Source of the DNA: a virus
Lineage: Duplodnaviria; Heunggongvirae; Uroviricota; Caudoviricetes
Virus record (IMG/VR): IMGVR_UViG_2541047866_000002
Direction: 5' to 3' (one strand)
DNA: 11,159 nt
Shown here: positions 329 through 3,223 of the stretch, piece after piece
Numbering within the stretch: position 1 is the first letter of the stretch
Layout of the letters: every line of letters starts with the position of its first letter
Notes under the pieces: generated by a model
What the model was told of the DNA's origin: nothing
Seen by the model: only the letters and a program-made list of their open reading frames with translations
The model's database searches: none
Position numbers and translations under genes: made by a program

Positions 329-400
329 GTTGGTTTTTCTCCACGGATTTACCGACAACCGAAGCCCTGACTGTTCCAGCAGTTGGGGCTTCACTGTTTT
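329..400 (+). ncRNA. Candidate sar-like antisense RNA covering the ant ribosome-binding region
   Basis: Extended -10 element TGcTATACT at 314-322 on the plus strand (inside the ant 5' end, antisense). A stem-loop at 361-392 (gaagccc...gggcttc, 7-bp stem with an internal ctg/cag sub-stem) is followed by a T-rich tract at 393-410. Predicted transcript is about 70 nt, antisense to the ant leader. P22 encodes a small sar RNA in the equivalent position. Confidence 0.3.
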
Positions 401-713: not shown

Positions 714-827
714 GTTACCCTCCACGCAAACAACTCTTTTCGAATACAAAAGATAGCAAAGTGAGTATATCTAGTCAAAATTTTTTTGCATACACTTTGC
801 TATCAAATTGAATACCAAAGGTGTTAT
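714..827. promoter_or_regulatory. Divergent arc / mnt promoter-operator region with a perfect 12-bp inverted repeat
   Basis: gatagcaaagtg at 752-763 and its exact reverse complement cactttgctatc at 793-804, 29 bp apart. On the minus strand -35 TTGACT (plus 773-778), a 17-bp spacer and -10 TATCTT (plus 750-755) lie upstream of arc, with one repeat copy in the spacer and overlapping the -10. On the plus strand a TTGCAT -35-like hexamer (786-791) sits just 5' of the other copy; the plus-strand -10 is unclear. Confidence 0.55.
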
Positions 828-1076
828 ATGGCAAAGGGTGTGTCAATTTCTCCAACTACGGTAAGAATCCCTGAATCTTTACGCGAGGCTCTTGCTGTCA
901 GAGCATCAAAAAATGGTCGCTCTGTTAACTCCGAGATCGTCATGATTTTGCAAGCCGCGATTGATGAAGATAGGTCGCCAAAGTCAGTTGAGTCATTTGC
1001 TCAGCAAGAAGCTGATAAATTCAAAGAGGCGCTACTTGAGACGCTAAAGACCATGTATGCTAAGGATGAAAAATAA
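828..1076 (+). CDS. mnt: Mnt-like ribbon-helix-helix repressor (82 aa)
   Basis: ATG at 828. The product MAKGVSISPTTVRIPESLREALAVRASKNGRSVNSEIVMILQAA...KFKEALLETLKTMYAKDEK resembles P22 Mnt along its length (GRSMNSELLQIVQDAL ... KKMVFDTLKDLYKK). It is divergent from arc as in immI. The stop TAA at 1074-1076 overlaps the next ATG (TAATG). Confidence 0.8.
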   Translation: MAKGVSISPTTVRIPESLREALAVRASKNGRSVNSEIVMILQAAIDEDRSPKSVESFAQQEADKFKEALLETLKTMYAKDEK

Positions 1077-1612
1077 TGCTGCACACAATTCATTTCTTAT
1101 GCCCTGTTAACACTGCCACTGTTGGGCAACTTCAGAACCACTGTCTCACCGCATTATCTCAAGGCGCAACTGAATTAAATATCCATATATCAAGTCAGGG
1201 AGGGGAAACTGCTGCTGGCTTTACTGCGTATAACTTTCTTAAGTCACTCCCTGTTACCGTTAGAACTCACAACATAAGCAATGTTGAATCCATAGCTAAT
1301 ATCGTTTTCCTGGCTGGCTCAGAACGTTTCGCAAACCCATTATCAAGATTCCTGTTACATCCTCTATTATGGTGCTTTGCCTCCCCAGCCGCCGACCATG
1401 CCAGATTGAGAGAGTACGGGAAATGCCTCGATAACGATCTTGATCGCTTCGTTGAGACGTTCAATATCGACATCGGAACCCATATTAGGTGGGCATCCCT
1501 GATAGCAGACTCGACCATTTTGGATGCTAACAAGGCTCTTGAGCATGGCATAATTAATTCCATAAAAACTGCAAGGCTGGCATCCAATCAGGCAAACTGG
1601 TGGGTTGTTTGA
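1076..1612 (+). CDS. ClpP-fold (S14-like) serine peptidase, short stand-alone form (178 aa)
   Basis: Start overlaps the mnt stop (TAATG). ISSQGGETAAGFTAYNFL aligns by eye to ClpP INSPGGVITAGMSIYDTM; NVESIANIVFLAGSERFANPLSRFLLHPL to [32 protein letters not shown]; the C-terminal ILDANKALEHGIINSI to FLSAPEAVEYGLVDSI. Candidate Ser (ESIA), His (LLHP) and Asp (IADSTILD) residues are present. Family assignment is from memory, not a search. Confidence 0.6.
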   Translation: MLHTIHFLCPVNTATVGQLQNHCLTALSQGATELNIHISSQGGETAAGFTAYNFLKSLPVTVRTHNISNVESIANIVFLAGSERFANPLSRFLLHPLLWCFASPAADHARLREYGKCLDNDLDRFVETFNIDIGTHIRWASLIADSTILDANKALEHGIINSIKTARLASNQANWWVV

Positions 1613-1630: not shown

Positions 1631-1662
1631 TCCTTATAAAAAACCCACCTGACGGTGGGTTT
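1631..1662. terminator. Stem-loop terminator between the convergent ClpP-like and YafO-like genes
   Basis: aaacccacc-tgac-ggtgggttt at 1641-1662 (9-bp perfect stem, 4-nt loop). On the minus strand it is followed by TTTTTATAAGGAG (plus 1631-1640), a canonical intrinsic terminator for the minus-strand cassette. On the plus strand the downstream T-tract is weak. Confidence 0.55.
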
Positions 1663-2110
1663 AGTCAAACATAGTGTTTCTAAAGTCTCTCGCATACCCT
1701 GCTAACACTCTCATTCTATTATGATTGTTAGCAGACATGTGAGCTACAGGATGAAAAAGAGCAATCAATGAATACCTGTTCTCATCAAAAAGATTTTGTG
1801 CATAAACGAGAGCGGTATTGGATGTTTTATGCCACTGCAACTTTTGCGGTGTGCTGATATCTGTGCCATTTTTTATTGGCTCAAATTTATTTTCACCAAT
1901 TGCTAAATGAAGGTGCATAAGGCCTGCATCTTCAATATCAGGAGGTCGATGATAAGAGGTGTCTCTGCCAAAATAGCTGGGCAACGTTCCCGTAGACTTG
2001 TAGATGATAAAATCATCTACAAGTGTTTGTTTTAAATCAGGAAACTCAACAAAAACCGGGGAGAAAAAATAGTCAAAACTATCCTGATTATATTCCACGG
2101 TTACTTGCAT
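1661..2110 (-). CDS. YafO-family toxin-like protein (149 aa)
   Basis: ATG at 2110-2108 with GAGGT 5 nt upstream, located inside the 3' end of the preceding gene. The product aligns by eye with E. coli YafO as I remember it: DFIIYKSTGTLPSYFGRD / DFISYKRDGVLPDTFGRD; HLHLAIGENKF / HIHLANENNPF; ALVYAQNLFDE...LIALFHPVAH / HLVYCQGAFDE...LIAILKPEPH; and a C-terminal N..M......A..FR pattern. Confidence 0.7.
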   Translation of the reverse strand: MQVTVEYNQDSFDYFFSPVFVEFPDLKQTLVDDFIIYKSTGTLPSYFGRDTSYHRPPDIEDAGLMHLHLAIGENKFEPIKNGTDISTPQKLQWHKTSNTALVYAQNLFDENRYSLIALFHPVAHMSANNHNRMRVLAGYARDFRNTMFD

Positions 2111-2118
2111 GTTTTACC

Positions 2119-2685
2119 TCAGTGGAAGTTACCAGAGTGAAACACACGAGTCCCGTGCTCAGCAAGCGCACGCAAACCAGCCATATCTACGGAACTATCA
2201 AAAACAACCGGAACACATGAGCGTTGTTTAATAAGACTATTCAGGTTGGTTACGGCAGATCTGGCATCAGCAACAACGATATAGATATCTCTTGCGATCT
2301 CTTTAAAATCAGCAGAAGCTTCTTTGAATACCGATTTCATTGCCCCTTCAAGTCCTCTCAATTGATGCTCTATCAATCGAGACTTTTCTGGTTCAATGAT
2401 AGACAACACATTGTCTACATTCTCATCGGTAGCGTTTGCAAGAACACGATAAGCGTATTTCAGCATTCGAGACAATTCTTTAATCGAAGACACCGCCTCA
2501 TGAAGCTCATCATTAGCCCGTTCACTGCTGAATGAGGATTGATGGTAAGCGTGCTGAACGTTATCAGTAACAACCACCTCACAACTGAACGCAGAAGCTT
2601 GCTGTAATAGCAAACCTATTGCGACTCCAGCTTTGGCAGCGTTCAAGCTAAACATTTCATCAATCCCATTAGTCTCATTGCTCAT
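2119..2685 (-). CDS. Hypothetical protein (188 aa), upstream partner of the YafO-like gene (antitoxin position)
   Basis: ATG at 2685-2683 preceded by AAGGAGG with a 5-nt spacer. Its stop TGA at 2121-2119 lies 8 nt before the YafO-like start. No motif I recognise (no obvious RHH/HTH). The longer ORF start at 2715 is rejected because it lacks an RBS. Confidence 0.6.
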   Translation of the reverse strand: MSNETNGIDEMFSLNAAKAGVAIGLLLQQASAFSCEVVVTDNVQHAYHQSSFSSERANDELHEAVSSIKELSRMLKYAYRVLANATDENVDNVLSIIEPEKSRLIEHQLRGLEGAMKSVFKEASADFKEIARDIYIVVADARSAVTNLNSLIKQRSCVPVVFDSSVDMAGLRALAEHGTRVFHSGNFH

Positions 2686-2860
2686 ACAAACCTCCTTCTT
2701 ATCGGAGATTATCAATAGCTATGCATCCATTGAATACACGCTATGCGCAATAAGTTTACGTCACGTGATATCATTATGCAACCACCGTTCTATCACCGAC
2801 TAACTTTACTCCCACTCCTATACATCATCTGGTATCCTGCGCAAAACTAAGGAGGTTGGT
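2686..2860. promoter_or_regulatory. Divergent intergenic region between the 188-aa gene and the membrane-protein gene, with candidate promoter and palindrome
   Basis: On the minus strand TTGCAT (plus 2776-2781), a 17-nt spacer and TAAACT form a plausible sigma70-like promoter for the cassette. The spacer contains the 8-bp palindrome TCACGTGA (2761-2768). Promoter for the plus-strand gene not confidently placed. Confidence 0.35.
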
Positions 2861-3211
2861 GTGAATGCTCAGTCTGTCATCATGGTTTTCCTTGGGCTGA
2901 TTGTCGCAAAACTATATCCAGACTGGTGGAAAGGGGCATTAGCTACTGTCGCCATCTATTTGCTTTTATCCATCGTTAAGCGATCACTCGCTGAGACCGT
3001 AAATCAAGCAAAACGTTTCTCATTTAAGAGTTTAATAAACTATGTTACTGGGCTTATTTTTTGCCTTTCAATTCTGATCGCTTCGGCTTTTTTGCCCGTA
3101 TCAATAGCTAATTTTTTTGGCGCACCATATGAGGTAGGTTATCTATTCTCTGTTTCCTGTCTTGCCATTGCTCTTCTTTACCTGTGGACGAGATCAAAGA
3201 ATAAAAATTAG
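2861..3211 (+). CDS. Small integral membrane protein with 4 predicted TM helices (116 aa), in the position and orientation of P22 sieA
   Basis: GTG at 2861 with GGAGG at 2851-2855 (5-nt spacer). Four hydrophobic stretches (VIMVFLGLIVAKLY, ALATVAIYLLLSIV, LIFCLSILIASAFLPVSIANFFG, YLFSVSCLAIALLYLW). Convergent with gene 16 and AT-rich. Confidence 0.6.
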   Translation: MNAQSVIMVFLGLIVAKLYPDWWKGALATVAIYLLLSIVKRSLAETVNQAKRFSFKSLINYVTGLIFCLSILIASAFLPVSIANFFGAPYEVGYLFSVSCLAIALLYLWTRSKNKN

Positions 3212-3223
3212 CCATCCGTGGCT
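3196..3223 (-). terminator. Short hairpin plus U-tract at the 3' end of the late operon (after gene 16)
   Basis: agcca-tccg-tggct at 3210-3223 (5-bp stem), followed on the minus strand by AATTTTTATTCTTT. The stem is short, so strength is uncertain. Confidence 0.35.

Follow-up and report, generated by a model that had tools for sequence, protein, structure and literature searches.

A mobile two-gene phage cassette pairing a YafO-family gene with a previously undescribed partner family: a putative toxin-partner module

The window analysed here, a stretch of 11,159 nucleotides (nt) from IMG/VR virus record IMGVR_UViG_2541047866_000002 (Caudoviricetes), carries on its minus strand two adjacent genes, an upstream one coding for a protein of 188 amino acids (aa), termed A, and a downstream one coding for a 149-aa protein of the YafO family, termed B. 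With moderate confidence, the two are considered to form a toxin-partner module akin to type II systems: A would restrain the putative RNase B, and the unit may serve as an abortive-infection or prophage-stabilising device. The genes share a compact operon anatomy, are obligately linked and have moved together between unrelated phage slots, and comparative sequence analysis suggests that A probably controls B. The RefSeq label of B already reads "type II toxin-antitoxin system YafO family toxin", while A is listed as hypothetical; what is new is the obligate partner family A, and no publication dealing with the A-B pair was found in literature searches.

Linkage, mobility and co-divergence of the two genes

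The sequence-only reading that preceded this analysis had proposed a functional two-gene cassette, homologues of which should co-occur elsewhere, and a survey of genomic neighbourhoods revealed A and B to be directly adjacent in every locus examined that carries either gene (88/88). Each of the 45 loci recovered via A has B directly downstream, and each of the 39 loci recovered via B with upstream DNA included has an A-family open reading frame (ORF) directly upstream. The gene of ~190 aa located upstream of B homologues aligns over its full length with A (34–38 % identity), and remote relatives of A (E = 2e-14, 8e-10 and 1.7e-4) are still directly followed by a YafO_toxin gene. The junction between the two genes is preserved as well: a gap of 8 nt with the Shine-Dalgarno sequence placed in the stop codon of A was found in 77 of the 88 loci, with conservation of the pattern CAYTGAGGTnnnnnDTG, and TTG serves as start codon in many B genes.

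P22-like prophages carry the cassette in the gp16/mnt slot, and siphoviruses carry it in the head-tail or tape-measure region; the latter include the cultured phage HK639, in which genes 17 and 18 represent the module and a lipoprotein gene adjoins it. Further sites of the cassette are the Q-to-holin slot and the integrase end of one prophage. Its host phages comprise P22-like, lambdoid and siphoviral phages of Enterobacterales together with the Pseudomonas aeruginosa temperate phages D14C, U7, U9 and YMC11/02/R656, and the linkage of A and B holds across two orders of bacteria and four or more phage contexts. What the sequence-only reading had missed is that this mobile unit is widespread and not confined to the sieA-to-mnt slot.

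Pairwise identities of A and B are correlated (r = 0.91, 861 pairs), and A diverges faster than B (40 % identity where B retains 57 %), which fits the behaviour typical of antitoxins and immunity proteins. At unsaturated synonymous sites, the ratio of non-synonymous to synonymous substitution rates (dN/dS) is 0.11–0.21 for A and 0.03–0.16 for B, and purifying selection acts on both genes. Together with linkage and co-divergence, this argues for A and B representing one functional, mobile unit.

Phage-borne YafO genes have been annotated and discussed as lone toxins, for instance in a study of Pseudomonas prophages listing a YafO gene as a toxin carried alone (PMC10449497); in the loci analysed here they always travel with a dedicated, previously undescribed partner family. 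The YafO family gains a second, non-YafN type of partner, and A represents a candidate new antitoxin or immunity fold. The compact module is distributed over pathogenic Escherichia coli of sequence type 95 (ST95), Salmonella, other Enterobacterales and P. aeruginosa phages, and is directly testable for phage defence or prophage stabilisation. Experiments should be straightforward, since the cassette is present in E. coli type strain ATCC 11775 and, as genes 17 and 18, in the cultured phage HK639.

The YafO-family protein and its helical partner

The resemblance of the 149-aa product to YafO, noticed from the sequence and proposed for checking by profile search, was borne out by a match of B to Pfam family PF13957 (YafO_toxin; E = 3.4e-22, 78.9 bits, cut-off 25), in which residues 37–145 align with positions 3–101 of the 101 profile positions, and by 38 % identity to YafO of E. 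coli K-12 in a BLASTP comparison (120 aa, E = 7e-20). Against the NCBIfam equivalog NF007377 (E. coli YafO), B attained 79 bits and stayed under the cut-off of 153. By these profile scores, B is assigned to the YafO family as a member, not as an equivalog. Residues D33, F34, Y37, K38, Y53, H66, Y103 and H124 of B are invariant in an alignment including K-12 YafO, as are H66, H68 and H124 in a set including the Pseudomonas clade; the invariance of residues shared with YafO extends over the sampled enterobacterial and Pseudomonas clades. The conserved His, Tyr, Lys and Arg residues are candidate catalytic residues, a role assumed for them here. All A-linked B proteins possess an insertion of ~19 residues (B residues ~8–26) that is lacking in K-12 YafO. 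Fold neighbours of B are of the RelE/HigB type, and a RelE-like alpha/beta fold is considered tentatively for B, the structure model of which is of low confidence (predicted local distance difference test, pLDDT, 52). Overall, B is predicted to be a diverged YafO-family, RelE-type (BECR) mRNA endonuclease toxin. In one viral contig (L021/L056, IMGVR_UViG_2537562173_000011), otherwise identical, B differs by 1 nt in length and is frame-shifted after about codon 11, which is explained either by inactivation of the toxin or by an error in sequencing.

Gene product A falls into PHROG 8416, a family of unknown function, and yielded no Pfam, NCBIfam or convincing PADLOC match; Pfam and NCBIfam domains were likewise absent from 41 diverse relatives, and one member of the A family displayed a weak match to Pfam FlgN (E = 0.0035). 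A word-indexed search of 5.8 billion proteins retrieved 6 clusters with the single A sequence and 54 with a profile, all of them hypothetical proteins of Enterobacterales; when 1.84 billion representatives were searched exhaustively with a profile, only 43 A-family proteins were recovered at E ≤ 0.001. No match was obtained for A among PDB sequences, and no similarity to YafN or to any other known antitoxin was detected. Similarities to ribosomal protein S7 (PDB, E = 0.054) and to DUF745, COPI and others (Pfam, E > 0.04) were judged to be due to chance or composition, and that to the tail of ZorA (PADLOC, 14 bits, E = 0.0039) to composition. The structure model predicts A to be all-helical and to form a bundle of long helices. 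The upstream 188-aa protein had been described from the sequence as devoid of a recognisable DNA-binding fold and proposed for profile search and structure prediction; the outcome of both (no domain match, no known family, a predicted long-helix bundle) agrees with that description. A is classified as a previously undescribed, predictedly helical family. Conservation across the A superfamily is highest in the C-terminal third (AxAR..LN.L..Q...F.S.ID..L..LA.H), which represents a candidate toxin-binding region.

In the proposed toxin-partner module, the cassette would be a self-contained, horizontally mobile two-gene phage moron with B as its effector, a YafO-type endonuclease of RelE fold that would cut mRNA and stop translation. 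A would bind B and keep it inactive, as antitoxin or immunity protein; it would be made first and in excess from its own strong but hairpin-masked ribosome-binding site, with B being translated only via coupling to A and often from a weak TTG start. In the lysogen, the pair would act as a type II-style toxin-antitoxin module. Upon loss or displacement of A, for example when a superinfecting phage shuts down host expression, B would cleave mRNA and the infection would be aborted; alternatively, the pair may stabilise the prophage. From the sequences, we infer that A may bind and neutralise B, that B may be toxic and that the pair may have a role in defence; indirect support for neutralisation comes from the co-divergence (r = 0.91). 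The linked bicistronic operon expected of a type II system is present, with its 8-nt gap, its own promoter-like element, a terminator and adjacency in 88/88 loci.

Several observations weigh against this reading. Neither the Pfam and NCBIfam scans nor the helical model revealed a recognisable DNA-binding domain in A (ribbon-helix-helix, helix-turn-helix, Phd/YefM or AbrB), which leaves the autoregulation typical of type II systems unexplained. The modelled A is a well-folded bundle of 188 aa, unlike the small, partly disordered antitoxins, and the pLDDT of the B model is low. The contrast between acidic antitoxin and basic toxin is absent (median isoelectric point 6.9 for A and 5.8 for B), and charge was discarded as an uninformative marker in this case. 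No defence model of PADLOC-DB v2 was matched by B or convincingly by A, and no published phenotype of the A-B pair was found in the literature. Finally, a crude home-made rule for the Sec signal pattern, used in place of a curated signal-peptide predictor, flagged 68 of 87 members of the A superfamily (78 %) versus 32 of 336 background ORFs (9.5 %) and 1 of 41 B proteins; if A were exported, simple sequestration of a cytoplasmic toxin would be impossible.

The N-terminus of A and other accounts of the partnership

The signal-like N-terminus, missed by the sequence-only reading, sits badly with a simple cytoplasmic antitoxin and is the main reason for not filing A simply as such. N-termini of the A superfamily resemble Sec signals in having a short basic n-region, a hydrophobic core of 9–18 residues and small residues at positions -3 and -1. 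In A of the window, the signal-like stretch covers about residues 11–33 and ends at QQASA/FSC (the slash marking the putative cleavage site); other members offer PAALA/E, PGAMA/E, GVAHA/E and QLAAA/T. A Tat signal was discarded as a candidate, RR being present only in some members and Arg being absent from the N-terminus of A in the window, and so was a lipobox before the semi-conserved Cys35, position -1 being occupied by H, P, Y or S in most members, a few remote ones excepted.

Taken at face value, this N-terminus would suit an exported or membrane-tethered A that acts as an envelope sensor or governs the cytoplasmic RNase B by its export status, such that, for example, on phage-induced loss of membrane potential or a block of Sec the precursor of A would stay in the cytoplasm or B would be released, which would set A apart from the classical antitoxins of the cytoplasm. 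This account is regarded as possible, if only tentatively. The pattern of n-region, h-region and AxA-like site recurs throughout the superfamily well above the background rate, remote members have only physico-chemical features in common, as expected of true signal peptides, and residues 36–53 are disordered in the model of A, directly past the putative cleavage site after residue 33. Moreover, the slots occupied by the cassette often hold envelope-acting exclusion genes, and the HK639 module has a lipoprotein gene next to it.

The export pattern, however, rests on the home-made rule, and the 18-residue n-region of the window clade is net acidic (-1 to -4 in 5 of 6 clusters), which disfavours Sec export unless Met11 is the start; Met11 is invariant, yet a strong ribosome-binding site precedes Met1. 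The stretch MPFFDxFK..GLLMQQ, comprising the hydrophobic core and its flanks, is unusually conserved within the close A family, which is unlike an ordinary signal peptide and fits a buried or binding helix. Hydrophobicity over 19 residues lies under the transmembrane range in most members, and periplasmic control of a cytoplasmic enzyme has no known route that dispenses with a membrane-spanning link. The more specific proposal that exported or tethered A governs the cytoplasmic YafO RNase and that the location of A reports on the state of the envelope or export machinery appears rather unlikely; A would then occur as cytoplasmic precursor and as exported or membrane-bound form, perhaps in two isoforms, one beginning with Met1 and the other with the invariant Met11. 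If true, the module would link phage-induced perturbation of the membrane or of Sec to translation shut-off. A phrase search of the searchable literature retrieved no exported or membrane-bound antitoxin, and with a functional N-terminal signal the system would be mechanistically unprecedented.

An improbable role for A is that of a FlgN-like helical chaperone or activator needed for folding, stability or targeting of B, with B alone being harmless or unstable. The weak FlgN match of one family member points in this direction, obligate linkage and co-divergence fit any tight partnership and not inhibition alone, and the ~19-residue insertion of A-linked B proteins could be a docking element. 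Conversely, K-12 YafO is toxic by itself according to summarised literature (PMC11980606), the residues shared with YafO are retained in B, and an upstream partner gene combined with a weak toxin start codon is the arrangement expected for an inhibitor made in excess.

That the two genes are mere neighbours, with B an orphan or decayed toxin that is tolerated or neutralised by host YafN and A an independent moron such as a superinfection-exclusion protein, would agree with the listing of such YafO genes as toxins carried "alone" (PMC10449497) and with the frameshifted B of one viral contig, but is highly improbable and largely excluded by the co-occurrence data (adjacency throughout the 88 loci, in both orders and all phage contexts), by the conserved coupling junction, the correlated divergence and the low dN/dS of B, and by cross-neutralisation through YafN being unlikely for a protein only 38 % identical to K-12 YafO.

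Cassette anatomy, prophage setting and known systems

The coordinates of both genes, the 8-nt gap between them and the location of the ribosome-binding site of B inside the end of A were confirmed from the ORF list and the sequence. Gene A extends from the ATG at 2685 to the TGA at 2121–2119 (2119–2685, minus strand), and gene B from the ATG at 2110 to the TAA at 1663–1661 (1661–2110, minus strand). At the predicted translational-coupling junction (2111–2121, minus strand), the TGA of A overlaps the GAGG (2120–2117) that precedes the ATG of B by a 6-nt spacer, the intergenic gap covering 2118–2111.

The promoter-like character ascribed to the region 2686–2860 was upheld in part: a scan of its minus strand for the sigma-70 consensus detected no site with at least 9 of 12 matching positions, and a weaker pair of hexamers with 8 of 12 matches was read from the sequence, consisting of a -35 element TTGCAT (2781–2776), a 17-nt spacer and a -10 element TAAACT (2758–2753). 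Its position is kept in four sister cassettes (L030, L002, L006 and L005; A 55–66 % identical), and it represents the putative cassette promoter (2753–2781, minus strand). The ribosome-binding site of A, AAGGAGG, is located 5 nt before the ATG at 2685 and is covered by a predicted leader hairpin (2689–2710, minus strand), in which AAUCUCC (2710–2704) pairs with GGAGGUU (2695–2689) in a 7-bp stem. The leader comprising this anti-Shine-Dalgarno stem (2680–2748) has a predicted folding energy of -20.1 kcal/mol (z = -2.67), and an equivalent CUCC/GGAG stem is present in 15/15 leaders of the clade with A homologues of 190 aa.

In this 190-aa clade (L008, L013, L010, L016, L017, L020 and L034–L038), the cassette travels with a conserved region some 130 nt before the A homologue, which opens with a palindrome with 7-bp arms, TTGCTCAaaaaTGAGCAA, that lies across a -35-like hexamer and represents a candidate operator; the palindrome is followed by a -10-like TAGAAT or TAAACT. 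Besides the anti-Shine-Dalgarno stem, the leader of the clade contains a GC hairpin, 4 of 5 pairs of which show compensatory changes, together with a U tract; it gave no Rfam match. The leader in the window possesses the anti-Shine-Dalgarno stem only and lacks the rest of this structure. A type III-like RNA antitoxin encoded in the leader was rejected, as there are neither tandem repeats nor an Rfam match and the structure of the 190-aa clade is missing in the window. Within B, codons 30–38 (1996–2024 of the window) form an inverted repeat of perfect 13 bp with a 3-nt loop (ACTTGTAGATGAT/ATCATCTACAAGT), which encodes the conserved motif LVDDFIIYK, is predicted to yield an mRNA hairpin of -16.2 kcal/mol and is retained as an 8-bp version in sister cassettes; this repeat may have arisen by chance from the coding sequence or may slow down translation of the toxin.

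The strong hairpin terminator noted behind B from the sequence was corroborated. This intrinsic terminator (1636–1662, minus strand) consists of a GC-rich 9-bp stem with a 4-nt loop (1662–1641) followed by a U tract; its predicted folding energy is -14.9 kcal/mol (z = -2.97 versus shuffled sequences), and an identical 42-bp segment of Salmonella phage Emek carries the annotation "terminator". An automatic terminator scan did not report it. The hairpin overlaps the stop codon of B, separates B from a convergent ClpP-like gene and marks the point at which similarity to cassette-free phages stops.

The window derives from a P22-like prophage that E. coli ST95 strains, APEC O1 among them, carry at argW. 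A 1.3-kb region with the cassette is 100 % identical in the chromosomes of E. coli APEC O1, S88, type strain ATCC 11775 and others, and at least 80 % of it is present in 55 of 5426 complete genomes. In APEC O1, the cassette lies between ejection-protein genes and the Arc/Mnt-Ant-tailspike region of a P22-like prophage adjoining tRNA-Arg and intS. The view of this slot as a moron hotspot is supported by phage phiv205-1, in which similarity of the flank extends as far as the terminator, beyond which two unrelated genes occupy the place of the cassette. The sieA gene proposed as border of the slot was not recovered: no sieA homologue was detectable, and its position in P22 corresponds to an unrelated hydrophobic ORF of 116 aa (2861–3211, plus strand), divergent from gene A. 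This ORF gave no match in a tblastn search of 50,697 phage records, presumably including P22, or in scans of family libraries, and may be an orphan membrane protein. A short terminator-like hairpin (3210–3223, minus strand) located just past the end of a gene 16-like ejection-protein gene precedes the cassette on this strand and may insulate it against transcription from the late operon.

At the left end of the window, a sar RNA (329–395, plus strand) was identified with Rfam RF00262 (83.9 bits versus a gathering score of 43); as sar is the antisense RNA of P22 immI, this end represents a P22-type Arc/Mnt/Ant immunity region. A gene for an Arc/Mnt-like ribbon-helix-helix protein (786–1076, plus strand) shares one base with the ClpP-like gene (1076–1612, plus strand), the product of which is a serine protease of 178 aa (Pfam CLP_protease, E = 2.2e-11); co-transcription of a protease with a Mnt-like repressor is unusual in such a region. 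The Mnt-like/ClpP-like pair occurs without the YafO cassette in phages phiv205-1, EC.P3, E212 and PhiR12. The protease was ruled out as a component of the cassette, since it is absent at all other cassette loci and present without the cassette in phiv205-1.

With SieA of P22 and other morons between gene 16 and mnt, the cassette shares the slot and an autonomous promoter-to-terminator layout. SieA has been described as one protein of the inner membrane by which the injection of DNA is blocked (PMC10883804), whereas the cassette encodes a putative RNase and a predictedly helical partner.

The closest known system is yafN-yafO of the E. coli K-12 dinB operon, the existence of which upholds the earlier statement that YafO normally follows the small antitoxin YafN. 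The toxins are homologous (38 % identity, same family PF13957), and in both systems the partner gene comes first and the toxin gene second, with tight spacing and probable coupling. In contrast, YafN is a 97-aa antitoxin to which the 188-aa helical bundle A bears no similarity, and B stays under the NCBI equivalog threshold and carries the insertion near its N-terminus. Regulation and genomic setting differ as well, the A-B module being phage-borne and mobile and yafN-yafO residing in a chromosomal operon.

Further parallels concern the partner. In RnlA-RnlB and LsoA-LsoB, which are active against phage T4, an RNase toxin is paired with an antitoxin that does not bind DNA. The proposed likeness consists in an RNase that a partner other than a transcription factor would hold until phage infection sets it free; the toxin fold differs, B being of predicted RelE type, and no relationship in sequence or fold was found, no search having been aimed at it. 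Panacea (PanA, DUF4065) antitoxins have helical domains and occur as partners of many families of toxins. A resembles these in being a compact, predictedly helical partner of similar size that is encoded upstream of the toxin and lacks a classical DNA-binding fold; unlike them, it has no DUF4065 match (Pfam, E ≤ 1) and is confined to one toxin subfamily in every case seen. By analogy, the A-B module may functionally resemble RnlAB/LsoAB or Panacea-type pairs.

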